From: Opitutales bacterium
GTDB taxonomy: Bacteria; Verrucomicrobiota; Verrucomicrobiia; Opitutales; JAKPNF01
Assembly (NCBI GenBank): GCA_031556275.1
Contig: JAVBTG010000040.1
Coordinates: 1-39,096 of the forward strand
DNA: 39,096 nucleotides
Reading direction: 5' to 3'
How positions within the stretch are numbered: the stretch's first letter is position 1; each line of letters starts with the position of its first letter. The notes below the pieces were generated by a model. That model was not told where the DNA came from. It did no database searches and saw nothing but the letters and a program-made list of their open reading frames with translations. Below are positions 19,343 through 34,850 of this stretch, piece by piece. The translations under genes were made by a program, and so were the position numbers.

Positions 19343-21052
19343 TTGCACGCGCAGGCAGCCGCGGGCGACGCTAGCGCTATGCACGCACTCGGGCGCATGT
19401 GCAAAACGGCGGGCGACATCCCGGGGGCCATATCGCACTACGAGCGGGCGGCGGCGTTGGGCCATGCCCCGTCCTTCTATAATCTTGCGCTCATTTACGA
19501 ACGCGATCAAGGCCCCGGGCACCCTGCCGATTGCTCCAAGGCAATCGTCTGCTTTGAAAAGGCCGAGGCCCTCGGCGACACCGACGCCCGCTGCGCCATC
19601 GGGCTCGTCTACGAGGTCGGCGGCAACGGCGTGCCCAAAGACGACGCCAAAGCGCTCGCCTGCTACGCGCTGTGCGCCGAGCGCGGCGACGCGCGCGGCA
19701 TTTACTGCCTAGCCCATTGTTACGAAACGGGCCTCGGCACAAAGGCGGACGCACAAAAAGCCCTCTCCCTCTATCAACTGTCAGCGGACAAAGGATACGC
19801 CTTGGCGCATTACAGCGTCGGAATTTTCCGCCTCAAGGGCCTAGGATGCGAGGCCGACGAAATCGAGGCGGCGCGACATTTCGCGCGGGCGCAATCCAGC
19901 GGGGACCCCGAAGCCCTGCACGCGCTGGCGCGCCATTACGCCGACGGCGGCAAGGGGGTAGCCCACCCCGCAAAGGCGCTCGCCATCTATCGCGACTTGA
20001 GTCAACGCGGCGACGCGCGAGCCCTTGTCGCCTTGGGCCGGTTTTATCGCGACGGTTTCGGCCTCGAACGCGACTATATCCGCGCCGCCGAATGTTTCGG
20101 CAAGGCCGCCTTGACGCTGGATCCCGCGGGGCTGTTTTATCTGGCCCGCGCCCACGAAAAAGGCGTGGGCGTCCCCAAAGACGAGGACGCCGCATACCGC
20201 CTCTACGAACAGGCGGCGGTGAGAGGCGAACCCTCCGCCATGCTCAATCTGGGCATCTTGCTCACGCAAGGGGAGCATGTGATTCACGACCCGGCGCGCG
20301 CCTTCGCGCTCATCAAGCAAGCAGCCCAAGGCGGCGAACCGGCGGCCCTCTACAACTTGGGCGTGCACTACGCCAACGGCTTGGGCGTCGAAAAAGACCC
20401 GCGCAGGGCGTTCGATTGTTTCGCGCAAGCGGCCGAATCGGGCGCGGCGGACGGTCTGTACGCGCTGGGGGATTGCTACGAACACGGGCGCGGCACACCC
20501 CCCGACGCGCGCTCCGCGCTGGGCTATTACCGCAAGGCAGCCGATGCCGGAAACCTCGACGCCGACCTTCGCCTGGCCCACGGCTACGCGCACGGCGAAC
20601 TCGGCCTGCCGCAAGACGAAGATGAAGCGTTTTTGCGCCTGCGCCGCATCGCCCAAAGCGGCCATGCCTCCGCGTTGTACGCCTTGGCGAGCGCCTTTGA
20701 GCACGGCGAAGGCTGCGCGCAGGATCCGGAAATGGCGCTGGCCTACTTCAAGGAATCCGCCGCGATGGGATACGCCCCCGCCTTCGGGAGCGTCGGCCGC
20801 TTTTACGCGGAAGGCAAAACCGGCCGCGCCTCCGATTACCCCGCCGCCCTTCGTTGGTATGAAAAAGGAATGACAAAAGGCCACGGGGAATCGGCGTTTC
20901 AGGCCGGCTTGCTCCATGAACGCGGCGCACACGGCACCCCCAAGGATTCGCGCGCGGCCGCCTGCTGCTACGAACGCGCCATCGCGCTGGGCCACGCCGA
21001 GGCCGCGCGCCGTTTGGCCGCCCTGCGGGGGAACCAAGGGACGCATGCCTGA
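19343..21052 (+). CDS. Sel1-like repeat protein (many tandem ~36-aa repeats; start uncertain)
   Basis: Repeated A..ALG..Y..G.GV.KD...A...Y..AA..G pattern along the whole ORF. Confidence 0.92.
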   Translation: MHAQAAAGDASAMHALGRMCKTAGDIPGAISHYERAAALGHAPSFYNLALIYERDQGPGHPADCSKAIVCFEKAEALGDTDARCAIGLVYEVGGNGVPKDDAKALACYALCAERGDARGIYCLAHCYETGLGTKADAQKALSLYQLSADKGYALAHYSVGIFRLKGLGCEADEIEAARHFARAQSSGDPEALHALARHYADGGKGVAHPAKALAIYRDLSQRGDARALVALGRFYRDGFGLERDYIRAAECFGKAALTLDPAGLFYLARAHEKGVGVPKDEDAAYRLYEQAAVRGEPSAMLNLGILLTQGEHVIHDPARAFALIKQAAQGGEPAALYNLGVHYANGLGVEKDPRRAFDCFAQAAESGAADGLYALGDCYEHGRGTPPDARSALGYYRKAADAGNLDADLRLAHGYAHGELGLPQDEDEAFLRLRRIAQSGHASALYALASAFEHGEGCAQDPEMALAYFKESAAMGYAPAFGSVGRFYAEGKTGRASDYPAALRWYEKGMTKGHGESAFQAGLLHERGAHGTPKDSRAAACCYERAIALGHAEAARRLAALRGNQGTHA

Positions 21053-21178
21053 GACGTCCGCGCGGGGCTATTCGCACCAAGGAAGTTCACGCGGCCGCGC
21101 GTGATGCTTATTTGCTTGCGGGTGGCCCGCGCACGCATTACAAAATGCCTTCGTCGATCCCCGCGCCCCACTCTGCCC

Positions 21179-24100
21179 ATGAGAATTTTATTTCCCCTAT
21201 TGGCGTTGTGCACCGCTTCAACTCTGTGCGCCGACGCCACGCCCGCCGAAATAGACACGCAAGGCGGCCCGCGCATCGGATTCCGATTCGACTTCGGGAG
21301 CGGCGAATCCGCCCTGAGCCTCGACATCGGCGAGTCGTCCCCCGGCAAGAGACTGCATACGCCGCAATGCCTCGTCAGGGGGATGACCGCCTCGCAAAGG
21401 CACACGATCACCGATGGGCCCAACCACGCGCTGACCGTTTCCAACCCCTATTACGAGTTGCGCGCGCACGCCGTGGATTCTAAATCCGACACGCAGTTCG
21501 TCTGGACCATGGAGTTCTTCGTCAAGGAAAACGGCGCTTTGCGCGAACAGCCCGCCCAGACTTACAGCGGCACCACGCGCTACGAGCGCGAGGTGTCCGA
21601 CGGGCAACTCATATTCAAGGACTTCACCATCGAGGGCGACGGCCAATTCGGAAAATTGAAGCGCCGCTTCGAATGGATCACCGAGTTTGAAGTCGGCAAG
21701 ACAGCCAAGGCCGAGGCCGTCCTAAGCAACGGCTATCCCATCAAGGAAATCGTGGTGCTGGACGGCGGGACCGGCTACGCCGAAGGCAGCGAAATCACTT
21801 TTCAGGACACATGGGGGCAATTCGCCATGGGAACCCTCAGCGTCAATCCCGCAACGGGAGCGGTAACCGCCGTCAACCTCACCAATCACGGCAGTAATTA
21901 TTACGATATAAGCGGACATTCCATCTCGAGGAGCACGCAGGCCGACCGGCGACCGACGCCGGAGCAAAAAAAAGAATTGGAAGCCTACGAGCGGACGCGG
22001 CGACGGATCATCAGCGAGGCTAGGGCCAAGGGCGAATCGCCCGCGAAAGCCTTGGCGAAACTCGAGCAACCCGAATTCCTCAAAACACAAAATTCGATCT
22101 CGACGCCCGTCACGCAACGCAGCGTCAAATTTGAAGCCGTGCTGGACCTTGAGCACGAGAGCCCCCCGCTTGAGGCGAAACGAGGGGTCACCAACGTCAC
22201 TGTCGTGCGTCCGGGCGAAGGATACGCGCGCAATGCGACCGTCGAATTCAAGGGAGAATGCGTCAAACCTGCACAGGGCCGGCTTTTTATCGGACAAGGA
22301 AGGGGATACATTCAAGGCATGCACATTTCCGTCAAGGGTTCCGGATATATTTCGCCGCCTGAAGTCGTTATCAACGACCCGGACGGCAAGGGACATTCGG
22401 CGGTTTTGCAGGCGCATCTAGAGGAAACTAGGGCCAAGTTGATGATAAAAATAACAGACCCCGGTACAAACTACCGAAGGGCCCCCGGCGTCCGGCTATT
22501 TGCAGACGGGAAGCCCGTGGGAGGTGTGAGTTTCCATGTCCAGCTTGAGAATGACGAAACCCTCGCCTCCATATCCGCGAAAAACATCCCTGCGAGCCTG
22601 TCGTCAAACGCCGTTTTACGGCTGGAAATAGAACCGCCCGCCCTCCGCGTCCAAGGTCCCATCACCAAAGCCCTCGTCGTGTACGACAAAGACGGGGAGA
22701 CCATTCTCAGCCGCGAAGGCAGCACGCTTGCGCGTTCCATTGCGGACAACACCGTTTCCTGCACGGACTTCACGCAAGGCCCCGGCGGCAAGATGATGAG
22801 CAAGGAAACCACCCTTTACAAAAATCACCCGTTCGGGCGACAGGAGCTCCAAAAAATCATCCACTGTTACCTGCCGGACGGCACCGAGGATGTCGCCGCC
22901 AGGGAGGTGACGGAGCATTTTTACTACGACAAGGAAAGCGACGGAAAGGCTTACGGCAAGCTCAAGGCCAAGCGGAAGTCCGGCAACGGCCCGTGGGTTT
23001 ACTATATTTACGGCAAGGACGTCTATCACGGAAAAACCATTTACCAATACCTCAGCTCTTCGTGGGACGGAAACGGCATTCCGGGCGAAGCGGGCAACGG
23101 CGTCCGCGAAACCGAACGCGACACCTTCGAGGACTACGCGCTCGGCGGCAGACGCGGGAAAGCCATTGTCGACACGTCAACCACCAAGCTGGACGGTAAA
23201 ATCGTTGAAAAACACCTGTCGGTCTTCTGGAAAGACCTGAGGACTTATCCGGTGGACGGTCTCCCCCGAGAGGCCGGCGAATGGTGGGAGGTCGACATGC
23301 GATCTGCGGACGACCCAGCGCCACTTATAACAAAATATGAGGCATTTCGTGATTTTGGCATAAATCAAGGAAAGGAGAGACTTATTGTCTACCCCGACGG
23401 GACCGCATTTTTGGGGGCATACGACAAGCGCGTGACCACCATCAGCCGGGGCATCCTCAACGACGAGCGGACCGACATCGTGGAGGGAGAAATCAGCGTC
23501 ACGACCACCAACGATCTCGGCAAGATTGTTTCCGAAAAGAAATTTTACCGCTCAAAGGGAAACACGGTCGAACAGACCGAGTTTGAACTGCTCAAGTCGG
23601 ACGAGTTCGGCAGGCCGCTGCTGGTGCGGCACAAGGGCGATCCCACCAACACCGTCTCCTACACCTACGGCCCTTACGGGATGAACAGCCGCACCGACCG
23701 CAACGGGACGATCCGCTACACACGGGACGCCATGCGCCGCGTCAGCGAGGAGCAAATCGGCGAAGCCAAGACATCCTACGAGCGCGACGCCCTCAACCGC
23801 GTCACGCGCACGAGCGTCAACGACGTCGTCATGTCTGAAACGCAGTACGACTCCATGGACCGCGTGCGCGCCGAAAGCAACCGCTTCCAAAATGAGCTGA
23901 TGAAACGCTCCTACCACTATTTCAAAAAGCCCTTCTACAACGCCACATGGACGAGCTTTTTCAATTCCGACAAAATCGCCTCCGTGGAGGAATTTTACAA
24001 GGACGGCTCGCCGTTGAGAATCTACGGCCTCGGCGTCGCCGGAGGCGCGGGCTACGCCTATGAGGTGGCTGAAGACGGCAAACGCACCACCGTCGTGACC

Positions 24101-26569
24101 CTCCTGAACCCCGACGGCTCACCCACAGAGGAAACCGTCCGACAGACGCAAGACTGGACGGGGCGCGCCGTTTCGATCCAAACGCCCTCCCCCGCCGGAA
24201 GCGGTGTCAGCGAAGAATCCATTTTTTATGACGCCAGCGGCCGCCCCGCGCGCGTCAGCCGCACGGGGCGGCCCGACATCCTCTACGCCTACGACAAAAT
24301 GGGTCGGCTTTCAAAGAAGGCGGTCGATCTCAACGGCAACGGGCGCATTGACGAAGGGGACGAGGTCGAAACATTTGAAGTTTCATTTGTCCGGGACCCC
24401 TTTGGCGGCGCAAACCGCCGCACGCTATTCACACGCACGCGGCCCGACGGCTCCGTTGAAACGGCGCAGATGACGGCCTCGTTGGACGGCAACCGCACGC
24501 AGGTCAGCGACGCGGGCGGCAAAGTGTCCGTCACCACGGCAGCAAAGGACGGCTCCGTCGAGACCGTAACACGCCTCGATGATGGGACCTCCCTCGTCGC
24601 CACCATGCGCGACGGGCTCCTCCGGCGCGAAGTCGTCAAAAACGCCGGCGGCGAAATCATCCGCGACACGTCTTGGACATACGACGCCTTCCGCCGCCCC
24701 GCCGAGGAAACCGAGCTCAAGGACGGCCGCACGCAAACCACGCGCATGACCTATTATAACGACGGTTCGCCACGCTCCGTGAGCAGGCAGGACCAGCCGA
24801 CCGTGTTTATCGCGCGCACGCCCGTGTCCGAGGAGGGAAGCACCCTCGCCCTAGTCACGGAGGACGGGCGCGCCCGCTTGTACAGCTACAACCCGCGCGG
24901 CCAACTGGTCCGTGAAGAGGGCAATGCCCTCTATCCGTCCGAATACACGCGCGACGCCGCCGGACGGCCGCTGTCCGTGAAGACGCGGCGTGCGCCCGAC
25001 GGCGAACCCGACACCACGCGCTGGACATATAACACCGCGGGACTGCCAACCGTTCAAACCAATCCCGACGGCGGATCCGTGCGCTACGCCTACGACACGG
25101 CCGGACGCCTAGTTTCACGCACGTGGGCGCGCGGGGTCACCACCACCTATGCCTATGACAAGGCAGGACTGCTCGAATCGGTGCGCTATTCCGACGGTAC
25201 TCCCCCCGTCGTCTTCACGCGCGACAAACGCGGGCTGCCGCTGGAAGTCGCCGATGCTTCCGGAAAACGCGCCCTGCGTCACGACGCCTTGGGACGGATC
25301 GTCCAAGAGCGCCACACCGAAGGGCCGCTGGCGGGAACCGCCGTCGAATACGCCTGCGACGAACGCGGGCGGGCGGGCCGCACCGCCCTGACATTGCCCG
25401 CGCCTTTCGTCGTGGAGCGCGCTTATGACAACGAGACGGGAAACCTCGCCCGTGTCGGCTGGGGCGACGGCAAAAACGAGCACGCTTACGCCGCTTATGA
25501 ACGCGCTGACAGCGGCGAACTCAGGGGCGTCAAGCGCGCCGTCACCGGGACACAGACGACACTCTCCACACGCATAAGCCATGCCGGCAACGGGCGGCTC
25601 AGCGATGTCTATCATTATCCGATGTCCGGGACGCAGGACGGCGGTTTTCATTACACGTATGACAACACGGGGCTGTGCGTCACGGCAGGGATGCCCGGAT
25701 GGTCCAAATGGACTTACGCCTACAATGCACGCCGCGAGCTGACACAGGCCGATTTAACCCCGAATGAAAAATCAACGGACAAACCCCAAGGGTTTGCCTA
25801 CCTTTATGACGACTCGGGCAACCGCGTGGAAACGCATGCCGGAGAAACCCAGACGCGTTACGCAACACTGCCGGGCAACGCCTACGCCTCGACGGAATCG
25901 AAAAATCCACGCCACACGCAGACTTTCGTTTACGATGCGGACGGCAATCTGCTCGACGACGGGCGGTGGGTTTATGCGTGGGACGCGGAAAACCGCCTCG
26001 CAAGCGCGCAGGAACACTCCGAAGGGGCGGCGCGCAAACTCACGTTCGCCTATGACACGGCCAACCGGCGCGTCCAAAAAACGCTCTGGAAACGCGTCGG
26101 GCCGAAAGCACCTTGGGAACGCGTTTATGCGCGCAATTTTCTTTATGACGGCGACCGTTTGGCCGCCGAACTTGACGGCATGGACAACAACAGGACCGTG
26201 CGCACCTACGCATGGGGGGAATCCGTTCCGCTGGGGATAAGCGACGCGGCGGGAAAAACACACTTCACCCTTTACGACGGCTGCGGCAACGTCGTCGGTC
26301 TGTACCCCGGCGCAAAGGCCAAGGGATCGCTCCAAATCTGCTCGCCCTTCGGGGAAATCATTTCCAGCGGCACCTCACTGGGGGATATGCCGCTGGGGTT
26401 TTTGTCCTTGTATTTCGACGAGGAAATCGGGTTGTACTGCGCGGGCGCGCGCTATTACAGTCCGAAACTGGGGCGGTGGATCAACCGCTGCGCACAACAG
26501 CCGCAGGGCAATCCTTACCGATTCAGGGACAACCAACCGCAAATCCCACACACGGCGCTCGCGCAATAG
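21179..26569 (+). CDS. Secreted RHS/YD-repeat protein with degenerate core and no C-terminal toxin domain
   Basis: Signal peptide MRILFPLLALCTASTLCA; many YD..GR repeats; YDADGNL, WDAENRL, RYYSPKLGRW core; stop about 30 codons after GRW. Confidence 0.9.
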   Translation: MRILFPLLALCTASTLCADATPAEIDTQGGPRIGFRFDFGSGESALSLDIGESSPGKRLHTPQCLVRGMTASQRHTITDGPNHALTVSNPYYELRAHAVDSKSDTQFVWTMEFFVKENGALREQPAQTYSGTTRYEREVSDGQLIFKDFTIEGDGQFGKLKRRFEWITEFEVGKTAKAEAVLSNGYPIKEIVVLDGGTGYAEGSEITFQDTWGQFAMGTLSVNPATGAVTAVNLTNHGSNYYDISGHSISRSTQADRRPTPEQKKELEAYERTRRRIISEARAKGESPAKALAKLEQPEFLKTQNSISTPVTQRSVKFEAVLDLEHESPPLEAKRGVTNVTVVRPGEGYARNATVEFKGECVKPAQGRLFIGQGRGYIQGMHISVKGSGYISPPEVVINDPDGKGHSAVLQAHLEETRAKLMIKITDPGTNYRRAPGVRLFADGKPVGGVSFHVQLENDETLASISAKNIPASLSSNAVLRLEIEPPALRVQGPITKALVVYDKDGETILSREGSTLARSIADNTVSCTDFTQGPGGKMMSKETTLYKNHPFGRQELQKIIHCYLPDGTEDVAAREVTEHFYYDKESDGKAYGKLKAKRKSGNGPWVYYIYGKDVYHGKTIYQYLSSSWDGNGIPGEAGNGVRETERDTFEDYALGGRRGKAIVDTSTTKLDGKIVEKHLSVFWKDLRTYPVDGLPREAGEWWEVDMRSADDPAPLITKYEAFRDFGINQGKERLIVYPDGTAFLGAYDKRVTTISRGILNDERTDIVEGEISVTTTNDLGKIVSEKKFYRSKGNTVEQTEFELLKSDEFGRPLLVRHKGDPTNTVSYTYGPYGMNSRTDRNGTIRYTRDAMRRVSEEQIGEAKTSYERDALNRVTRTSVNDVVMSETQYDSMDRVRAESNRFQNELMKRSYHYFKKPFYNATWTSFFNSDKIASVEEFYKDGSPLRIYGLGVAGGAGYAYEVAEDGKRTTVVTLLNPDGSPTEETVRQTQDWTGRAVSIQTPSPAGSGVSEESIFYDASGRPARVSRTGRPDILYAYDKMGRLSKKAVDLNGNGRIDEGDEVETFEVSFVRDPFGGANRRTLFTRTRPDGSVETAQMTASLDGNRTQVSDAGGKVSVTTAAKDGSVETVTRLDDGTSLVATMRDGLLRREVVKNAGGEIIRDTSWTYDAFRRPAEETELKDGRTQTTRMTYYNDGSPRSVSRQDQPTVFIARTPVSEEGSTLALVTEDGRARLYSYNPRGQLVREEGNALYPSEYTRDAAGRPLSVKTRRAPDGEPDTTRWTYNTAGLPTVQTNPDGGSVRYAYDTAGRLVSRTWARGVTTTYAYDKAGLLESVRYSDGTPPVVFTRDKRGLPLEVADASGKRALRHDALGRIVQERHTEGPLAGTAVEYACDERGRAGRTALTLPAPFVVERAYDNETGNLARVGWGDGKNEHAYAAYERADSGELRGVKRAVTGTQTTLSTRISHAGNGRLSDVYHYPMSGTQDGGFHYTYDNTGLCVTAGMPGWSKWTYAYNARRELTQADLTPNEKSTDKPQGFAYLYDDSGNRVETHAGETQTRYATLPGNAYASTESKNPRHTQTFVYDADGNLLDDGRWVYAWDAENRLASAQEHSEGAARKLTFAYDTANRRVQKTLWKRVGPKAPWERVYARNFLYDGDRLAAELDGMDNNRTVRTYAWGESVPLGISDAAGKTHFTLYDGCGNVVGLYPGAKAKGSLQICSPFGEIISSGTSLGDMPLGFLSLYFDEEIGLYCAGARYYSPKLGRWINRCAQQPQGNPYRFRDNQPQIPHTALAQ

Positions 26570-26642
26570 GCCGCCGGAAAACATTCCGGCAAGGCCAAGG
26601 CACCCGCGCAGTCCGACGGCCAAAAAAGCCGCGCAAAGGCAC

Positions 26643-26670
26643 TTGATTTTTTTCGAAGGTTTGCTAGTCT
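26643..26670 (+). promoter_or_regulatory. Putative tRNA-Gln promoter
   Basis: TTGATT-16 nt-TAGTCT with TGn extended -10. Confidence 0.4.
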
Positions 26671-26720
26671 GAATCTTTACCCGTTTGTAAAAAAAGGGCC
26701 ATGGTGCCCTTTTTTGACAT

Positions 26721-26794
26721 TGTCCGATGGTGTAATGGTAGCACAAGTGACTCTGACTCACTTTGTCTAGGTTCGAATCCTAGTCGGACAACCA
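26721..26794 (+). tRNA. tRNA-Gln(CTG)
   Basis: Acceptor TGTCCGA/TCGGACA-A-CCA, anticodon arm AGTGA-CT-CTG-AC-TCACT, T loop GGTTCGAATCC. Confidence 0.96.
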
Positions 26795-26811
26795 CTTCCC
26801 CCTTTGAATAC

Positions 26812-26897
26812 ATAGGAGGGGGACAAAAGCATCTAAAAATCCCGAAACTCACTCAAGTTTCGGGATTTACTTCTTTTTAATGCCGTCCCCTTCCTGT
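26812..26897. terminator. Long nested hairpin between tRNA-Gln and the recombinase 3' end
   Basis: Perfect AAATCCCGAAACT/AGTTTCGGGATTT (26837-26849/26856-26868) inside an outer AGGAGGGGGAC/GTCCCCTTCCT stem. Confidence 0.7.
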
Positions 26898-26981
26898 ACA
26901 GCGAAAAGACACTCTTTGGTGCGACATTCTATCGAAGAAGACTTATTTCGCCGGCAGAAAAACAGGACACGCACCAATGGG

Positions 26982-28964
26982 TTATGGGGCGGTTTGCATC
27001 AAATTCTTCAAAAGCCTAATTTGCTTATCATCGGGATGTAAGGAGATTACTTTCAGTTTTTTGAAGCTAACTTTTTCAATCTGAGAGGCATGCCTGAGAC
27101 TTAGAATAAACGCGACTGCCTCATGCGAAAGATCGTCCAGTAGCTTAATTTTGCGCCCAAGAGTCGTCTTTTTGACTCTCATTTTATCAGCCATCGTGCG
27201 AATGCTTATATCCTCGCATCGCATCTTTTTCCTCCATTTCATAATTTGGTGCAGCCAGTGATGTTTAATCGGCCTTCCTTTCGCGTCAGATGAAGACATA
27301 TTTCCGTTCCCGCCGCCCTTGCATTTCAGATCGAAGGGAGCGTATATGTGCCACTGGGAATACCCCCGGGAATTATCGACGCTGAACAATACTTCCAGGT
27401 GTCCCAATGAGGCGTATTCGGGAGTGAAAATTACAGCGAGCATGAAATCCCGTTTGCCTTCGGATTCATTTCGCAGAACTAGGACAAGCTTTTTGACCGC
27501 ATGCCTCAATATTTCGCTGCGCTCTGAATCTTCCAAATGCTCTTGGAGGGCATCAAAATCCTGGAAGATCGCATTAATCTGAGACTGCCCAACCGTCTTA
27601 TCACAGCCAAGAAGTGTCTGTTCGGTTTCAATTTCCCTTAGGCGCATACTTAACCTTTCTATCTCATCGGACAATTTAGAAGCTCGAGCCCGCAATGCTT
27701 CTTTCATGACCGCATTGCCTTCAAATTCCGCCAACTCATCAATTAAATTCTGAAGCAAAGCATTGTTCCTCCCGCTTTCAGCTAAAAGTCCTTTTTTCTC
27801 TTCGGCAATTCGTTCTGGATATTCATCGCCGCCCTGTTTCAATCGCCGCCGATCAATATTCTTTGCGGCTATAAAGCCAAGCGCGGAAAAAATGACAGAC
27901 TCTATGATCTTTTTCCCAATCCTCGTTCTGCAGGCGCTCTGCGCATGAAACTTGTTCTTCGCGGAGCAGACATAGTACTGATAATGAGTGCCGTCTTTGC
28001 GTCGCTTCCCGGCGAACGAAGTGGTCATCATCGCCCCGCATGAACAGAACAAATATTTCTTCAACAAATGCGATCCTCTCATTCGGATATGCGAAATCTG
28101 GCAACGCTTCTGTCTCGCCAACTTTTCTTGGGTTCTTTCCCAAGCGGCACGGTCCACGAGTGCCTCATGCAACCCATCGTTGAGTTCCAATCCTTTTTCC
28201 GCAGACCACCAACAGACATAACCGGCATAAACGGGGTTTTGCAATATCTGACGGACATAATTTTCGCTGTAAGCACCACCTCCCATCGCCTCCTCTTTTC
28301 GTCCCTTTACGGTAGGCGTGGTTTTATATTTCTGCGCCATATGTGTCGCGATTTCCGAAGGACGCATCCCATCGGAAAATAATTGAAAAATCTCACGGAT
28401 ATGCACGGCCGCCGCCTCATCCACCACCAAAGTGCATTTCTTTTCGCCGCAAGCATACCCCGGAGGCGTTCTTCCACCCGTGCGATACCCTTGTTTGAAC
28501 AGTTCATACATTGCAATCGTTATACGTTGTACGATCTGTCCACGTTCTAGCTCTGCCATTCCCGCCATCATCGTGCGGATAAAACTACCAAAGGGAGAAT
28601 TATCCGGATTACAATCATTCGTGTAATGAACGCCGACACCGTAGCCTCGAATTATTTTCTCAAATTCAAAATAATCGAATTTATCGCGACTAATACGATC
28701 CAGTTTATAGCAAAGCACATAGGCAATATCCCCGTCTTGGACTCGCTTAAGCAGTGCCTGCATACCAGGTCGTCGCATATTACTTCCGGATGTTCCGGGA
28801 TCTGTGAACATTTCCACCAGTTCCATGCCCGGATGCGCCGCAACATATTGATGGATAATAGATTTCTGCGCCTCTATGGAGTCAAAGACCTTGCCTCGCA
28901 ACTGGAGATCCGTACTGACGCGCGCATAGCCAACAACCTTCAGGTTTCGTTTAACGACATTCAT
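26982..28964 (-). CDS. Large serine recombinase (resolvase + recombinase + Zn-ribbon + coiled coil + extra C-terminal HTH-like region)
   Basis: VGYARVST (catalytic Ser), RPGMQALL, DRISR, ILQNPVYAG, CSCG...YYVC...C; GGAGGT RBS upstream. Confidence 0.95.
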   Translation of the reverse strand: MNVVKRNLKVVGYARVSTDLQLRGKVFDSIEAQKSIIHQYVAAHPGMELVEMFTDPGTSGSNMRRPGMQALLKRVQDGDIAYVLCYKLDRISRDKFDYFEFEKIIRGYGVGVHYTNDCNPDNSPFGSFIRTMMAGMAELERGQIVQRITIAMYELFKQGYRTGGRTPPGYACGEKKCTLVVDEAAAVHIREIFQLFSDGMRPSEIATHMAQKYKTTPTVKGRKEEAMGGGAYSENYVRQILQNPVYAGYVCWWSAEKGLELNDGLHEALVDRAAWERTQEKLARQKRCQISHIRMRGSHLLKKYLFCSCGAMMTTSFAGKRRKDGTHYQYYVCSAKNKFHAQSACRTRIGKKIIESVIFSALGFIAAKNIDRRRLKQGGDEYPERIAEEKKGLLAESGRNNALLQNLIDELAEFEGNAVMKEALRARASKLSDEIERLSMRLREIETEQTLLGCDKTVGQSQINAIFQDFDALQEHLEDSERSEILRHAVKKLVLVLRNESEGKRDFMLAVIFTPEYASLGHLEVLFSVDNSRGYSQWHIYAPFDLKCKGGGNGNMSSSDAKGRPIKHHWLHQIMKWRKKMRCEDISIRTMADKMRVKKTTLGRKIKLLDDLSHEAVAFILSLRHASQIEKVSFKKLKVISLHPDDKQIRLLKNLMQTAP

Positions 28965-29124
28965 GGGTCACCTCCTTTGCTTGTGTAGCTTCGTGACATT
29001 TGACTTCTTGCGACTGCGCCCAGTCCCGACAACACCCCCTATCGCCCCTCGCATCTAACTCGCATCGACATACGCATATGGCCGTCAAGTAAACCGCCCG
29101 CGTGTTTCTTATTTTAGTTTTCAT
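28951..29124 (-). CDS. Small Cys-rich ORF (57 aa) overlapping the recombinase start
   Basis: GGAAGGGT-ATG; MKTKIRNTRAVYLTAICVCRCELDARGDRGCCRDW...; 14-nt overlap with the recombinase. Confidence 0.4.
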   Translation of the reverse strand: MKTKIRNTRAVYLTAICVCRCELDARGDRGCCRDWAQSQEVKCHEATQAKEVTHECR

Positions 29125-29686
29125 ACCCTTCCAGTATAGGGATGTCTCCAAAATTCATGGAAAACCAAGCCCTCTTCTCGCCCTTTTCGCCACATGAATT
29201 ACGCCTATTTCATTCTAAACCAACAAATTAATTCCTTTTTTCATTTCCTAGGGCTGTCGTCATGCTCACGACGCAAACGCCTGAATACTCCCCCCATTAG
29301 TTTATTGACGACGCCTTTCATATAGTTCGCCCGACGAAGCAATATCTCCACAAATACGCACGCCCAAAGGCTGCAAGTTGTCCTCATTCGCCCAGTATAA
29401 GCATGCTCAAAAATTGGGTTGGGGAGCAAGAGGATATGGATCGTAGGCTATCCCCTTCCATAAAGTACTGTCGCGCACAGCGATTCATGGCTTTTTATAT
29501 TCGTCGACCATCATATTTCATTAAAAATCAATTACAGACGCTCGATATAGCCATGTGTCGCTTGAGACATATTTAATGCATGAAAACAACAATAATCCTC
29601 GATAACCGATCGGCTACTGGAACAGGCGCATAAGTTCGCCAGGATACAATCGCATTCCGGTCTCATCAACGAAACGCTACGAATTC

Positions 29687-29736
29687 TTGTAAAAAGGAAG
29701 CCAATTCTTTACAAAAACAAAATAAATTCATATCGT
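29687..29736 (+). promoter_or_regulatory. Putative promoter of the 241-aa gene with an inverted repeat over the -35
   Basis: TTTACA(29708)-17 nt-TATCGT(29731); TTGTAAA(29687-29693)/TTTACAA(29708-29714) dyad. Confidence 0.5.
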
Positions 29737-29766
29737 TAAATGAGGATACATTAACTGTATTACGAA

Positions 29767-30492
29767 ATGAATCTTGCATCTAGACTTTATAACTTACTTA
29801 AAAAATTTGAAACCATTCCTGCGAACATGCGGTTTCGGCAGGCAATCAGTCAAATATTTTCCATCCCCGATCAAAAGTCACCTGAGATTTTTCGATCTTA
29901 TGTCAGCATCATCAATCTTTCTCTAGAAGTCAAAGATCGTTTGAATGCTATCCCCGACATAAATATAGGGCTGTACGAAAAATCGCTAAACGAAATAGAA
30001 AAACATTTGGCTGCTTTTAACATAGAAAAAGATCTCGATGCGTTTAAAGGTGGCCTAAAGAACGAAAACTTCCTGGGTCTTGAGTTCATAAGTGACAAAT
30101 TTGATGAAGTTGAAAAAGAAGAGGAAATTAATGAAGAAGATTTGAAAAAACTTGAGATCCAAATCGATGATTTGATTGAAACAGTAAAAAATGCAAATAC
30201 ATCTCCCGACTTTATTCAATTTTTAGTATCCCACCTTTTCGCAATCAAAATATCAGTACAAAACTATCGTTTTTTTGGAGCTGTCGGAATCCAAACCGCC
30301 ATGGCACGAGTAATCGGAGAAGTATTCCTAGATCCTAGAGGGGCAACAACAGATGAAAAAAAGCAATCTCTCGTGCGCAAAGTATTCGACACAATTAAAG
30401 ATGCGAACACTTTAATCAGTTTCGTAAGGAATGGTGTCCACGCTATTAAAGCGCTCCCGCTCGATGCCATCTCAAAATTAATGGGAGAGTAA
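29767..30492 (+). CDS. Hypothetical alpha-helical protein (241 aa), island cargo
   Basis: Long ORF in AT-rich DNA with its own promoter; acidic coiled-coil-like middle; no motif recognised. Confidence 0.85.
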   Translation: MNLASRLYNLLKKFETIPANMRFRQAISQIFSIPDQKSPEIFRSYVSIINLSLEVKDRLNAIPDINIGLYEKSLNEIEKHLAAFNIEKDLDAFKGGLKNENFLGLEFISDKFDEVEKEEEINEEDLKKLEIQIDDLIETVKNANTSPDFIQFLVSHLFAIKISVQNYRFFGAVGIQTAMARVIGEVFLDPRGATTDEKKQSLVRKVFDTIKDANTLISFVRNGVHAIKALPLDAISKLMGE

Positions 30493-30532
30493 CTCCATTC
30501 CTACTATTGTATCGTAATACCTATTTATTTCC

Positions 30533-32530
30533 TTAGGTGTTCTCGTTCGATTCGTCTACATCCTGTCCATCGCAATCAATGACGGGGATGAATTTTGCGT
30601 GAACTTTCTCCAAATAAGGGCGAGAAGTATCCCGCGTGGCCTCATAATTTAACGATTGATTGATAAATTGAAGTCGAACGCGGGCTTTGGAGATTATTTC
30701 GGTCCATGTAAATCCCCAGACTTGAATGTTTGATTTTCCGTCATCGTATATCAATCCGGAGGGTTTATTTCGTTCATTACATTTTCGCTTCGCGTACTCA
30801 TCCATTTCATTTGACACAACAATAAATTTCCAACGAGTTTTCTCAGAGAGAAAACGAGGATCCGCAGCAACAGCAATCGCATAGCTTTCCACTTGAGACA
30901 GTATTGTGGAATTAATCTTCTGGGCCGGCCGTTTTAGCTCCACCACCAGATGATCATATTCGTCGTGCCGAGGTTTATTGGCACGGCTAAGCATTAAATC
31001 AATGCGTCCCTGCTTCCCACCTTCACGCTCCACAGGACTATCATCATCACATCGTTTCCCTAATTCTTCCAGATGAAACGCAAGCACTTCTTCTAGACGC
31101 TGTTCACTCCCGGCTAAAGCGAATTCTTCATCGAAAATCCATGCTTCTTTTTCTAGAATTTTATGTAATTGATCTCTCTCCAATAGCGATTTTTTTGTCT
31201 CTGAGTCGAAGAGCAAATTTTCCAGAGCAGTAAGAAAATTCAATCTATTCGCTACAATTTTAGCTGAACTAATGATATTTGAAAGAGGAGTACTCATCAT
31301 TAATTCAGCCAAGTCATCTTGCTCTTCTTTTTTAAGATTGAGCACTTCTGTAATAATTTGCTGAACCGATGCTGGGTTTTCTTTAATAGCTTGTGCCAAC
31401 AACCGAAATACGAACCTCTTTGATTGAGAATCTGAATTTTCAAACGATGGCAAATATTCCTCTAAATTCACTGCTAGGATGTCAAATACCTGACGCTCGA
31501 CGATTTCAATAGGATCAATTATCGCTTTGTTTTCAAAAGGATAAATTTCCTCCTGCTTCCAACGTTCAACAATTTGACTCTGCTGGTCAGCTAGACGCTT
31601 GCGGAAATATCCACGAACTTCTTTTTTCGCTATTTTAATAATTTCCTTAACGTCTTCATTAAGTTCATCGAAAATCAGTAAATTTTCCCGATCAAGTTCT
31701 TTGAAATGATCGCACTTGATGTAAACAGTAAAATTAAATCCTGGAGCATGAATTTTGACGCCTGAACCGGCTTCATGCAGTGAAACACCGTCTGCATCAC
31801 AAAGATGTAACTCGCGATCAGTTGGCATTGCCCATTCGACAATAGTTATCACCGCTGAAACAACTTTTCCACTGGGCAATGTAATCGCCCCCAGCAAAAT
31901 ATCATGCTTCACATCTTGATAAATGTTCGGGTCAATCTTGTCGCCGCAGTAATATATAGTTACATCGGGATATTGACTCAAATATGGAGCAAATATCTTG
32001 GCAAACTCCGTCCGAGCTTCTTCGTCCACCAAAGAAGGATGGTTTTTTTGAATATTTGAGATGGTAACCGTTGTTCCTGTATTTTTAGTATCTACCTTGG
32101 CAGGAGAAGACGAAGACATACTCTCAAGCGAACCACCGTCTCCTTGTATCGTATATTGCATAATGGAGCCATCGCTGCCTTTAAAGGATGTTGCCCATTT
32201 CACTCGGCTTCCAAGCGAAAATGCTTTAAAACGACCTTGTCCGCTTTTGCCGTGTAAAGATCGCCCATTTGAACGATTCTTAGTCTTTTTCCAAGAAGAT
32301 CCCAAGTTCCCAAATAATATCTCAATATCCGCATGTTCAATACCAGAACCATTATCAGAAATACAAATAGTCTCTGGAGCTCCAAGCGCATTCAGCCCCA
32401 CATCAACTCGTATTTCTGTCGCTCCCGCGTCTAGCCCATTCCAAATCAACTCCGATACTGCTTTGACTGGAGCTGCAATAGCAAGTCTCTCAAGAAAATC
32501 GCCTTTGGCTGAAATGGGGATTTTTTTCAT
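30533..32530 (-). CDS. GHKL (MORC/MutL-like HATPase) ATPase fused to a C-terminal PD-(D/E)XK nuclease
   Basis: ELIWNGLDA (N box), ISDNGSGI (G1), HGKSGQGRFKAF (G2), TGTTV; helical linker; ER.QLH.ILEKEAWIF, RIDLML...HLVVELKRP. Confidence 0.85.
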   Translation of the reverse strand: MKKIPISAKGDFLERLAIAAPVKAVSELIWNGLDAGATEIRVDVGLNALGAPETICISDNGSGIEHADIEILFGNLGSSWKKTKNRSNGRSLHGKSGQGRFKAFSLGSRVKWATSFKGSDGSIMQYTIQGDGGSLESMSSSSPAKVDTKNTGTTVTISNIQKNHPSLVDEEARTEFAKIFAPYLSQYPDVTIYYCGDKIDPNIYQDVKHDILLGAITLPSGKVVSAVITIVEWAMPTDRELHLCDADGVSLHEAGSGVKIHAPGFNFTVYIKCDHFKELDRENLLIFDELNEDVKEIIKIAKKEVRGYFRKRLADQQSQIVERWKQEEIYPFENKAIIDPIEIVERQVFDILAVNLEEYLPSFENSDSQSKRFVFRLLAQAIKENPASVQQIITEVLNLKKEEQDDLAELMMSTPLSNIISSAKIVANRLNFLTALENLLFDSETKKSLLERDQLHKILEKEAWIFDEEFALAGSEQRLEEVLAFHLEELGKRCDDDSPVEREGGKQGRIDLMLSRANKPRHDEYDHLVVELKRPAQKINSTILSQVESYAIAVAADPRFLSEKTRWKFIVVSNEMDEYAKRKCNERNKPSGLIYDDGKSNIQVWGFTWTEIISKARVRLQFINQSLNYEATRDTSRPYLEKVHAKFIPVIDCDGQDVDESNENT

Positions 32531-32742
32531 ACAAAAAAGTGTGAGCATCCCCAAAAAATTAGTCCAGATCTAATGCCGGCGCCTGTTTGAGGGGCGGGTC
32601 CCCCTGAATATCCTGGGACATAGCTAAAGTAAAATGGATGCGTCACTTGGGCATTTGATCAAAGTGTTTGATTGAACATACACAAAAGTTGAATTACTGT
32701 GTGGGAATATTTCAGATAGCCCTCGCTCTTTCTTTTAAAAGA

Positions 32743-32806
32743 TTACCGGACGGGAATAATTCACTTGAAATCTAGGCGAAGATCAATGAATATACCCGAA
32801 CGGTAA
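32743..32806. promoter_or_regulatory. Pair of palindromic operators upstream of hipB
   Basis: TTACCGGACGGGAA (32743-32756) and TACCCGAACGGTAA (32793-32806), consensus TTACCGnnCGGTAA, flanking TTGAAA at 32765. Confidence 0.65.
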
Positions 32807-32822
32807 CATTTTAACAAAAACA

Positions 32823-33050
32823 ATGAAACTGACGACACAAAAGATCGGCCTCTTGATCCGCAAGACCCGTAAGGATCAAGGGCTCACCCAGCAGGATTTG
32901 GCGCTGGCGTGCGGGACTGGGCTACGTTTCATTATTGATTTGGAAAAAGGAAAACCCTCATGTGAATTTGCGAAAGCTTTGCACGTCATTCAAACTTTAG
33001 GTATCCACGTCACACTCACTACCCCGGTAATCCCCACAGAGGATAAATAG
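32823..33050 (+). CDS. hipB: HipB-like XRE HTH antitoxin (y4mF type)
   Basis: IRKTRKDQGLTQQDLALACGTGLRFIIDLEKGKPSC; directly upstream of hipA. Confidence 0.9.
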   Translation: MKLTTQKIGLLIRKTRKDQGLTQQDLALACGTGLRFIIDLEKGKPSCEFAKALHVIQTLGIHVTLTTPVIPTEDK

Positions 33051-33052
33051 CC

Positions 33053-34315
33053 ATGAAACGCACGTTAAACGTCTATTTGGATACCGCCCTTGTAGGCCAA
33101 CTCTCCCAAGACAATGAGGGGCGAATGCGTTTTGCCTACAATGAAAAATGGCTTACCTACCCCAATGCCATTGCCCTATCTCAATCACTGCCGTTGAGGG
33201 CTTCTCGTTTTACGCCCAAAGAATGCAAAGGCTTCTTTGATGGAATTCTGCCCGAACAGAAAAACAGGGAGCTTATTGCAAAGATATTGGGAGTCAGCCC
33301 GAATAATGACTATGCGATGCTCGAGCAAATTGGCGGCGAATGTGCGGGTGCCGTGAGTTTTTTACCACCCGATGTACCCTTTCCCGCAAAGGAATACGCC
33401 TACCATTCACTATCCGAAAAAGAGCTGGTCAGCATCATTGGGCGGCTGCCAAACGAGCCATTGCTCGCAGGCGAGCCCGGCATTCGACTGTCGCTTGCGG
33501 GCGCTCAAAATAAAATAGCAGTCCATGTGGACGCCAAAGGAAAGATCGCCCTGCCCCTCAACGGCGCTCCCAGCACGCACATTTTAAAACCGGCCATTGG
33601 GCATTTCCCAAACATCGTCAGCAACGAGGCGCTCTGCCTTGAACTTGCAAACGCCGTCGGCATTCCCGCGGCAAACGCCCAAGTCGGTTCCGCCGGCGGA
33701 AAAAAATACCTCTTGGTTCAACGCTACGATCGCCTCCCAGATGCCAATCTCCCCTATCCCAAACGCCTCCACCAGGAAGACTTCTGCCAAGCCCTCGGCA
33801 TTTCATCTGAACACAAATATCAGCTCGAAGGCGGCCCAAGTTTAAAACAATCCTTCGAGTTGCTACGAAACGCGTCAACCTTGCCCGCCCGCGATATCCA
33901 GCGTCTATTCAATCTGGTCATTTTTAACACCATCATCGGCAATCATGACGCGCACGGGAAAAATTTCTCCCTGCTCTATTCCAAGGGCAGCACACGCCTT
34001 GCCCCCGCCTATGACGTTCTCTCAACCGTTTACTATCCCCAACTAACCGCCAAGATGGCCATGCGCATCGGCAAAACCTATGAATCCGTCCATTTGCGCC
34101 TATCCGATTTCGAGCAATTTGCCGACGAAGCCGGGCTGTCCGCTTCAGCAATTGCCAAACATATCGCCGCTCTCGCCGAAGAAATACGAGCGGAACTGCC
34201 CGTTTTAAAAAAGAAATATGCCGAAGTCGCCGACCTAATCAAACTCATCGACGAACGTGCCATCTCCTTCATTCATCGAATGCAAATCAAGCAGGGAATT
34301 TCATTCACACGCTAG
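33053..34315 (+). CDS. hipA: HipA-family Ser/Thr kinase toxin
   Basis: LSQSLP N-domain, SLAGAQNK P-loop, HILKP, HQEDFCQALG, GNHDAHGKNFS, LAPAYD. Confidence 0.96.
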   Translation: MKRTLNVYLDTALVGQLSQDNEGRMRFAYNEKWLTYPNAIALSQSLPLRASRFTPKECKGFFDGILPEQKNRELIAKILGVSPNNDYAMLEQIGGECAGAVSFLPPDVPFPAKEYAYHSLSEKELVSIIGRLPNEPLLAGEPGIRLSLAGAQNKIAVHVDAKGKIALPLNGAPSTHILKPAIGHFPNIVSNEALCLELANAVGIPAANAQVGSAGGKKYLLVQRYDRLPDANLPYPKRLHQEDFCQALGISSEHKYQLEGGPSLKQSFELLRNASTLPARDIQRLFNLVIFNTIIGNHDAHGKNFSLLYSKGSTRLAPAYDVLSTVYYPQLTAKMAMRIGKTYESVHLRLSDFEQFADEAGLSASAIAKHIAALAEEIRAELPVLKKKYAEVADLIKLIDERAISFIHRMQIKQGISFTR

Positions 34316-34335
34316 TTACGGTGAAATATATGGGA

Positions 34336-34451
34336 TTAGGGCCCTCCAATTGCAATGAGGATTGAACTTCACTCGCCTGTGTTAACGCTAAATATCTGCC
34401 CGTTGCTAAATCAATTAATTGGTCCCAGAATCATCAAATTGATGGCCCTAA
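34336..34451. repeat. Imperfect inverted repeat pair, possible MITE
   Basis: TTAGGGCCCTCCAATT ... AATTGATGGCCCTAA. Confidence 0.4.
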
Positions 34452-34464
34452 GCTCTAAAAAAGG

Positions 34465-34544
34465 AGTCTCATTTTTGCGTTTCAGCAAGAATGAAACGTT
34501 TCAATTTTCACCATATTTCGGGTTTATGGAGCAAAAATGAGACT
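34465..34544. repeat. Perfect 14-bp inverted repeat with 52-nt spacer
   Basis: AGTCTCATTTTTGC (34465-34478) / GCAAAAATGAGACT (34531-34544). Confidence 0.75.
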
Positions 34545-34645
34545 GGGGCGTGAAAGCCAAATATCCAAAATCCGGCATGTGTCTATCTTGGCGGGAAAGA
34601 TGAATAATTTTCAAAATCACAGCTCACAAACCTTAGCGAGAGACA

Positions 34646-34725
34646 TCGGGCAACCACTTTCCGAAAGCCCTGTTTTCCCTCTGAAACCGGGGCTTTTTTG
34701 TGGTTGGCCGACTGGGGATTGGGAT
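34646..34725. repeat. attR-like tRNA-Gln 3'-end copy 1 within a hairpin/terminator
   Basis: TCGGGCAACCACTT versus tRNA TCGGACAACCACTT; AAAGCCC..GGGCTTTTTT; then antisense arm GTGGTTGGCCGACT. Confidence 0.75.
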
Positions 34726-34773
34726 AAATGGCGCCAGTCATTTACCCGCAGGGCGAGCGCATAGCGCGCGTCC

Positions 34774-34850
34774 AATCCATACTAAGGACAACCACTTTGA
34801 AAAGCCTTCCATTTGGAGGGCTTTTTTGTGGTTGGATGACCAGACTGGGA
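34774..34850. repeat. attR-like tRNA-Gln 3'-end copy 2 within a hairpin/terminator
   Basis: GGACAACCACTT exact (34786-34797) preceded by AATCC; AAAGCCTTCC..GGAGGGCTTTTTT; then GTGGTTG. Confidence 0.75.

Follow-up and report, generated by a model that had tools for sequence, protein, structure and literature searches.

Proteins with RHS/YD-repeat cocoons are understood as containers that free a toxin by self-cleavage. What, then, is a cocoon that encloses no recognizable toxin and that has lost the residues with which it would cleave itself? This question is raised by a gene at positions 21179..26569 (+ strand) of a 39,096 nucleotide (nt) stretch of DNA from an Opitutales bacterium (contig JAVBTG010000040.1 of assembly GCA_031556275.1; in the following, the window). 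A preliminary description of the window, made from its letters alone, had proposed that the gene encodes an RHS shell without toxin tip, immunity gene or working autoprotease that might have been put to a new use. In our analysis the protein is an RHS shell protein by its domain matches and predicted fold, and it lacks the traits that define an active RHS autoprotease and a toxin-immunity system. Comparison with related proteins gives an even chance, in our estimate, that it is a disarmed shell maintained as a non-toxic exported protein.

End of the reading frame and catalytic residues

The gene comprises 1,796 codons from an ATG at 21179, which is also the start of the public gene call (P0002, 1,796 amino acids, aa), and closes with a TAG stop at 26567..26569 (+), the position at which the core model ends and a toxin tip would be expected. 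An upstream GTG at 21101 keeps the same frame open and extends the protein to 1,822 aa (P0001, whose numbering is used below unless P0002 is named). Because a terminator-like, GC-rich hairpin (21087-21104) just 3' of the neighbouring Sel1 gene overlaps this GTG, the ATG is the likelier start. The frame runs for 5.4 kb without stop or frameshift, and for about 1,800 codons at 60% guanine plus cytosine (GC) content chance is ruled out by far. The single uninterrupted frame and the C-terminal ending given in the preliminary description (GRWINRCAQQPQGNPYRFRDNQPQIPHTALAQ directly before the stop) were both correct.

A degenerate RHS-associated core domain, i.e. the C-terminal plug and former aspartyl protease, occupies 26342..26566 (+) according to the NCBIfam model TIGR03696 and alignments. 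The match scored 41.5 bits against a cut-off of 32.5 (44.3 bits in a scan of the whole genome) and aligned residues 1748-1813 with model positions 2-67 of 76. It is followed by nine residues (QIPHTALAQ) before the stop, and nine model positions are left, so that the stop coincides exactly with the end of the model. Judged from this alignment, the frame ends precisely at the predicted RHS cut site, where the variable toxin begins; 0 residues beyond the core model end are available for a toxin domain. The model NF041261 (enterobacterial RHS element core protein) gave 40.1 bits, which is below its equivalog threshold of 2000.

The catalytic set of the protease is described as one Arg followed by two Asp (PMC9935623; this and the other papers are cited from the excerpts accessible to us). 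We compared these positions with 89 relatives, the selection of which is given below. The Arg is kept as R1784 (codon 26450-26452) in a column that is 100% Arg. Both Asp required for cleavage are replaced: the first Asp-Pro reads C1797-A1798 (26489-26494), where the columns are 99% D and 94% P, and the DPxG(L) motif, which holds the second catalytic Asp at the cut site, reads T1818-A-L-A1821 (26552-26563), in columns with 97% Asp and 100% Gly. In BiTLP, a bacterial teneurin-like protein, the catalytic residues are R2103, D2116 and D2140 (PMC13018210), and the Arg-to-Asp spacing of 13 equals that between R1784 and C1797. For Rhs1 the exchange D1338N in the second motif was reported to abolish cleavage (PMC8636562). 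The statement of the preliminary description that DP reads CA and that DPxG is missing was accurate, and its dead autoprotease stands as far as both Asp are concerned; it had overlooked that the catalytic Arg is still present.

Downstream of the stop lies a spacer of 151 nt (26570..26720) with small hairpins and a T-run just 5' of a tRNA-Gln gene (CTG, 26721..26794, +, found by ARAGORN), which bounds the RHS locus. No open reading frame (ORF) of at least 60 aa lies wholly inside the spacer, and the only one on the + strand that reaches into it (26212-26646) mostly overlaps the 3' end of the gene. The spacer is too short for a toxin or immunity gene, in agreement with the distance of about 150 nt from which the preliminary description had argued. 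We also considered a tip hidden behind read-through of the TAG or in another frame and rejected it, as inspection by eye of the other two frames and of the read-through product gave nothing RHS-like or toxin-like.

Over the region 20900-27300 we compared the window with one DNA run (X1) and two RNA runs (X2 and X3) from one study. A separately assembled Logan contig of 5,437 bases from X1 covered 21164-26600 with 0 differences, and an X1 contig of 182 bases spanned 26585-26766. X1 (depth ~6.8) is the probable source sample and thus provides a separate assembly, not independent data. Since the X1 contigs span both, the stop and the tRNA junction were reproduced by another assembler; the assembly error at the 3' end that the preliminary description had considered was not seen. 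X2, which was taken from another sample, contained four contigs identical to the gene (21974-22238, 23946-24184, 24298-24546 and 24914-25228), which is a hint that the gene is transcribed. From X3 no contig could be placed on the compared region, which is no proof of absence.

Relatives and the extent of change in the plug

Orthologues were sought in the genomes of 40 relatives, in 5.8 billion protein clusters (with the whole protein and with region 1480-1822, the 'shorter' length class being left out), in 1.84 billion representative proteins and by pattern scans of contigs. The best non-self match to the whole protein was 26% identical over 65% of the length, and the best matches to residues 1480-1822 were ~40% identical over ~62% of that region. 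Judged by these similarities the gene is a singleton, its best relatives being 26-41% identical. No relative was confirmed by the pattern scans, which covered both metagenome and genome contigs. The genome of a sister species from the same genus (G001, 97% complete) gave no match to the RHS protein, and 14 of the other 40 relatives' genomes gave weak RHS matches only. A close relative carrying DP and DPxG together with toxin and immunity genes, the case that the preliminary description had held against its own reading, was not seen, there being no close relative at all. In the sister genome the tRNA-Gln, which is 96% identical to that of the window, adjoins a DUF2284 gene, and a GNAT gene comes after its Sel1 gene (30% identical). 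No RHS gene is found there, and the comparison yields no ancestral state of the 3' end.

How unusual the end of the protein is can be seen from its more distant relatives. Searching with the whole protein gave 73 non-self matches, 40 of which carry the core motif as detected by pattern. In all 40 the first site is Asp. Of these, 37 also showed a second motif, followed by a tail of 12 aa in one protein (P0023), of 52 aa and 60 aa in one protein each and of 101-257 aa in the remaining 34. Among the 119 nearest C-terminal relatives the core motif occurs in 90, with DP in 82, D plus another residue in five and EP in one, i.e. with Asp or Glu at the first site in 88 of 90; the other two look like false motif matches. 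In the 89 rows that were scored (the two doubtful ones dropped, the motif required beyond residue 800) the tail after the second motif has a minimum of 76, a median of 206 and a maximum of 447 residues, with fewer than 30 residues in 0 of 89. The 29 matches without motif and the two doubtful ones were checked by BLASTP with the last 130 residues. Most of these 31 have variant motifs that by eye keep the Asp (Glu in one) and continue for 119-818 residues past the aligned stretch. In P0249 only 11 residues follow a degenerate core, P0300 is truncated by the end of its contig, and P0307 and P0342 do not reach the core. None of the relatives checked combines a complete core, replacement of both Asp and lack of a tip, as our protein does. 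Loss of the Asp residues and of the tip appears, from these comparisons, to be a derived state.

We then asked how far the change extends into the protein. In an alignment of 90 sequences over the last 230 residues, 57 columns reached a conservation of 80% or more in the 89 relatives; the RHS protein keeps 36 of them. Within the shell part (residues 1593-1738) it keeps 22 of 28 conserved columns, which is in the normal range, as 13 of the 89 relatives score lower. Within the plug (residues 1739-1822) it keeps 14 of 29, the lowest value of all 90 sequences. The difference in retention between shell and plug gave p = 0.028 in Fisher's exact test, and the few relatives that score low in the plug do so in the shell part as well. 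This pattern suggests that the decay is confined to the C-terminal plug and is not gene-wide. The last 84 codons have GC fractions of 0.54, 0.48 and 0.75 at the first, second and third codon position (GC1 to GC3), the mean GC3 of the gene being 0.73 ± 0.07. As this codon-position bias persists up to the stop, the plug has probably changed as translated sequence and not as abandoned DNA. Half of the conserved positions of the plug have drifted, from which we infer that the protease function was lost long ago. Over such a time a neutral frame of 5.4 kb would have broken, so that the rest of the gene is probably under selection. Acquisition of the plug by fusion with a vestigial core that had decayed neutrally was considered as well; we rate it unlikely, since the GC3 of the last 84 codons, a small sample, equals the gene mean.

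Shell, N-terminal repeats and known cocoon proteins

The YD-repeat beta-cocoon extends over 22988..26314 (+; P0001 residues ~630-1738), as delimited by the RHS_repeat matches, by homologues that align from about residue 630, and by structure prediction with AlphaFold2 (AF2) and Foldseek. The Pfam family RHS_repeat (PF05593) matched in five stretches (E 1e-27, 96.3 bits; cut-off 22) and the NCBIfam model YD_repeat_2x (TIGR01643) with E 8.6e-23. For residues 625-1822 (1,198 aa) a model was built by AF2 with 48 homologues picked from the 73 non-self matches. Its mean predicted local distance difference test score (pLDDT) was 65.8 and its predicted template modelling score (pTM) 0.58. For model residues ~540-1180 the block means of the pLDDT were mostly 74-96, dipping briefly near 850 and 960-980. 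The top Foldseek match of this model was RhsA (7q97_A; E 9.5e-37, 1,124 aligned columns), and 8qjd_B and 7pq5 were matched as well, as were the teneurin-like protein 9ifo_A (E 4.6e-34), teneurins (~1e-30), TcB-TcC (4o9x; E 4.7e-26) and mosquito SGS1 (8fjp_A; E 5.3e-21); the matches to Rhs cores, the teneurin-like protein, teneurins and TcB-TcC span E 1e-37 to 1e-22. In the predicted model the shell fold is that of an Rhs cocoon. The YD-repeat shell of the preliminary description was thereby borne out, and the structure prediction it had proposed gave the Rhs fold.

From its ATG the protein starts with MRILFPLLALCTASTLCA followed by DA, and inspection of the translation by eye suggests a Sec-type signal peptide (21179..21232, +). 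Further downstream the N-terminal part contains about six repeats of ~40 aa with a 'GxGY' core. A first pair lies at 21701..21913 (+; P0002 residues ~175-245; AF2 pLDDT 71-95) and a second block of about four at 22181..22588 (+; P0002 residues ~335-470; AF2 pLDDT mostly 80-93), the two blocks being parted by a charged, partly helical linker. No Pfam family, toxin families included, matched the N-terminal ~570 residues. An exhaustive search of the 1.84 billion representatives with the N-terminal 574 aa gave 186 matches at E<=1e-3, with the query itself alone at E<=1e-30. The other matches fall on the G-x-G-Y-core repeat of ~40 aa (query residues ~165-245 and ~335-470), which occurs in many copies in long proteins, and a scan of the eight top matches found no Pfam family over these repeats. 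By these matches, the 'GxGY' beta repeat is an unnamed and widespread repeat module. An AF2 model of the N-terminal region, built with the shorter matches (31 of the 150 listed), was all-beta with confident repeat blocks and a mean pLDDT of 60.8. In the ESM Atlas the region reached scores of 0.87 only, to unnamed and mostly viral clusters, which we take as a lead only. From its architecture the N-terminal region looks like a modular stalk.

Among known systems, the Rhs polymorphic toxins (RhsA of P. protegens, 7q97; Rhs1 of P. laumondii, 7pq5) have in common with our protein the cocoon fold, the RHS repeats, the core plug and the catalytic Arg. Unlike them, it has both Asp replaced, no residues past the cut site and no immunity gene. 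Its N-terminus, with Sec-type signal and GxGY repeats, is not PAAR/VgrG-linked as in the Rhs toxins, and local identity does not exceed 41%. Sec-dependent RHS proteins of the WapA type and bacterial teneurin-like proteins (TLPs) such as BiTLP (9ifo) share the signal-led export and the variable N-terminal surface or adhesion modules in front of the YD shell. TLPs are described with two DPxG motifs, an enclosed toxic C-terminal domain and an immunity gene next to them (PMC13018210). Our protein lacks these traits, having no DPxG pair, no enclosed toxic domain and no neighbouring immunity gene. Of the teneurin superfold parts described besides the YD shell (TTR, FN-plug and NHL propeller), a Pfam scan over all 1,822 aa detected none; confidence is low in the N-terminal third of the shell model, and the match to 9ifo_A covers the shell.

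Metazoan teneurins have a YD shell without the aspartyl-protease motif and a non-toxic, adhesive role (PMC13018210, PMC9935623). They differ from our protein, which is bacterial and ends at the plug, in having C-terminal domains outside the shell as well as transmembrane, EGF and NHL parts. The likeness to teneurins is an analogy of fate and not a membership; only in this sense does the preliminary description's comparison with teneurins hold, as no teneurin-specific domain was found by Pfam. TcB-TcC and SGS1 have the same cocoon fold as our protein. SGS1 is regarded as a repurposed shell of bacterial origin, and both keep the triad of one Arg and two Asp together with luminal cargo (PMC9935623). 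In our protein, unlike in these two, the Asp residues and the cargo are gone. Among the papers listed by a literature search (15 of 58), none used wording that denotes a toxin-less Rhs protein, which is a weak negative.

Surroundings of the gene and competing explanations

The genome from which the window stems (G000) is a metagenome bin of 216 contigs and 86% completeness. We scanned it with TIGR03696 and found two further cores, on contigs C48 and C155, both at contig ends and each with both Asp kept. The core on C48 (7477-7740, model positions 2-76) is followed by a tip of ~260 aa (GC 0.39, with an HExxH-like motif) and then by a 242-aa secreted-looking ORF; that on C155 (14694-14840) precedes a tip that weakly matches PT-TG and ParB_N and, after it, a 63-aa DUF6896 ORF. 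The cassette stretches lie at 8049-8324 of C44, 5996-7822 of C48 and 13935-14843 of C155 (loci L023, L024 and L033-L035), the ends of C44 and C48 overlapping by 70 bases. The C48 unit starts at a GTG just ~90 codons upstream and hence is an orphan cassette without shell. No full-length shell for the two cassettes was found in the assembly, and RHS repeats (PF05593) occur in the window gene only. A scan with PF25023 matched nothing in the genome, the window gene included, and is hence uninformative on other shells. The toxin-free reading of the preliminary description therefore applies to the locus, while two core-plus-tip cassettes lie on other contigs of the genome.

Between the cassettes and the 3' end of the window gene, tblastn found no similarity at E<=0.01 and blastn just chance matches of 15-20 nt; by sequence the cassettes are assigned to a core subfamily other than that of the window gene. 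Recombination between the gene and the orphan cassettes was rejected, there being no DNA or protein similarity. As a separate observation, the sister genome contains a unit (L036, C45:1-1022, cut by the contig start) with a normal core end that keeps both Asp, a ~130-aa tip and a 158-aa lipoprotein-like ORF downstream. The two cassettes and this unit show that the lineage uses ordinary RHS toxins, with the window gene as a separate, disarmed member. In the C-terminal displacement model, rhs core-tip cassettes are reportedly found in orphan or vestigial form. The window gene is the reverse of such cassettes, a full shell without tip as opposed to a tip without shell, and this genome holds both kinds. 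Beside the orphan cassettes we further noticed a conserved stretch of a few hundred bases (L033 on C44, 7444-7917; L024 on C155, 56-475; and the start of L023); its spurious ORFs hardly differ from one contig to another. The stretch may represent a repeat, an RNA gene or a site of recombination.

Upstream of the RHS gene a Sel1-repeat protein of 569 aa is encoded (19343..21052, +; Pfam Sel1 E 5.4e-72, seven stretches); the two genes are possibly co-transcribed, though the terminator-like hairpin sits between them. Right after the tRNA-Gln, the GC content drops from ~0.60 to 0.39-0.48 and stays low until ~34.9 kb. This low-GC island (26795-34800), for which the tRNA-Gln is the integration point, is absent from the sister genome. 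Its genes encode a large serine recombinase (26982-28964, -), an unassigned protein of 241 aa (29767-30492), a 673-aa GHKL-type ATPase (30533-32554, -), for which PADLOC gave no hit, and a HipA kinase (33053-34315), for which it gave weak PDC-M03A hits. At 34649-34659 and again at 34788-34798 there are partial, att-like copies of the tRNA 3' end, which resembles the outcome of a tandem integration of two elements. The integrated island and the repeated att-like copies indicate that the tRNA locus is prone to rearrangement. The island beyond the tRNA does not by itself explain the missing tip. The island is separated from the DUF2284 gene by an alpha-amylase gene (34920-36539, -) of host-like GC, for which no homologue was found in the sister contigs examined.

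Taken at even odds, the reading of a disarmed and maintained shell would have the following form. The protein would be exported by Sec, and its core domain would still fold back as the plug of the cocoon. As the plug could not cleave and would have nothing to release, the product would be an uncleaved and probably empty shell, displayed or secreted on the repeat stalk. Selection has most likely maintained the shell beyond the loss of the protease, given that the frame is open, the coding bias is kept and only the plug has lost conserved residues. In this bacterium of the invertebrate gut the shell would serve a structural or adhesive purpose as an exported protein without toxicity. We hold only tentatively, and consider rather doubtful, the more specific proposal that an RHS cocoon has been turned into a permanently closed, cargo-free export whose toxin and protease were discarded and whose shell and stalk were selected for adhesion or envelope structure in the animal gut. 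The preliminary description had likewise preferred repurposing over random decay. In favour of this, toxin, immunity gene and catalytic Asp are gone from an open frame, the decay is local and the coding bias reaches the stop; the roles it had named (adhesin, scaffold, carrier of N-terminal cargo) found no direct support.

Several points weigh against a maintained shell. No orthologue was present in any collection searched, with nothing above 41% local identity, and as the sister species does without the gene it is dispensable at the genus level. Local decay was measured on one sequence and ~57 columns against comparison sequences that are mutually related and hence non-independent. The pattern is clean and unusual, yet it is that of a single sequence. 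In the shell model the pLDDT is below 50 in the first 173 and the last 8 residues, so that closure and emptiness of the shell are conjectural. Export is presumed from a signal peptide judged by eye, the N-terminal model had no Foldseek match in the PDB at E<=0.001, and the adhesive role is a guess from the repeat architecture. The contigs of the RNA library may be carried-over DNA, and the DNA run has a low depth of ~6.8.

The gene could instead be a non-functional relic that lost its toxin-immunity module by deletion or rearrangement at the tRNA-Gln hotspot and that, without selection, is simply not yet broken. Its singleton status and its absence from the 97% complete sister genome would fit, as would the rearrangement-prone locus with its tRNA border, integrated island and att-like copies; truncated RHS ends also occur among the relatives, P0023 ending 12 residues after the cut site and P0249 inside a degenerate core. 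However, the loss of 15 of 29 conserved plug positions, among them two Asp whose replacement needs at least two base changes each, implies a long time, and the 5.4-kb frame is still open. The GC3 bias up to the last codon, the normal conservation of the adjacent shell and the hint of transcription likewise speak against a relic, which we regard as conceivable but somewhat unlikely. That the protein is still a delivery device, with cargo in the N-terminal ~150 residues or provided in trans and carried or presented by the shell without C-terminal cleavage, seems improbable to us. P0002 residues ~19-170 have neither a family nor a confident fold, and the two core, tip and immunity cassettes have no shell of their own in the assembly. 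But recombination with these cassettes or loading has no evident basis, as they belong to another core subfamily without similarity to the 3' end of the gene; moreover, the N-terminal region matches no toxin family, and the accessible parts of the literature gave no example of N-terminal cargo inside a shell. Least probable, and in our view very remote, is that a normal tip has been masked by an assembly or annotation artefact at the 3' end, be it a chimeric join, an overlooked frameshift or a stop that is read through. The bin is fragmented and its other RHS cores lie at contig ends, yet the X1 contigs, an independent assembly if not independent data, cover the gene without a difference and bridge into the tRNA, neither the other frames nor TAG read-through encode anything RHS-like or toxin-like, and the Asp losses are in frame, between conserved residues.

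If the gene were a mere relic, it would still document the reverse of the orphan-tip pattern, with the tip removed exactly at the core boundary of a full shell. In the accessible parts of the cited literature, shells without the protease motif are those of animal teneurins only, and the repurposed mosquito SGS1 keeps its catalytic triad. An intact bacterial shell maintained without toxin and protease would mean that bacteria have a use for the cocoon itself, and it would offer a natural empty cage for structural study. A closed, cargo-free cocoon would be a prokaryotic parallel to the exaptation behind metazoan teneurins.

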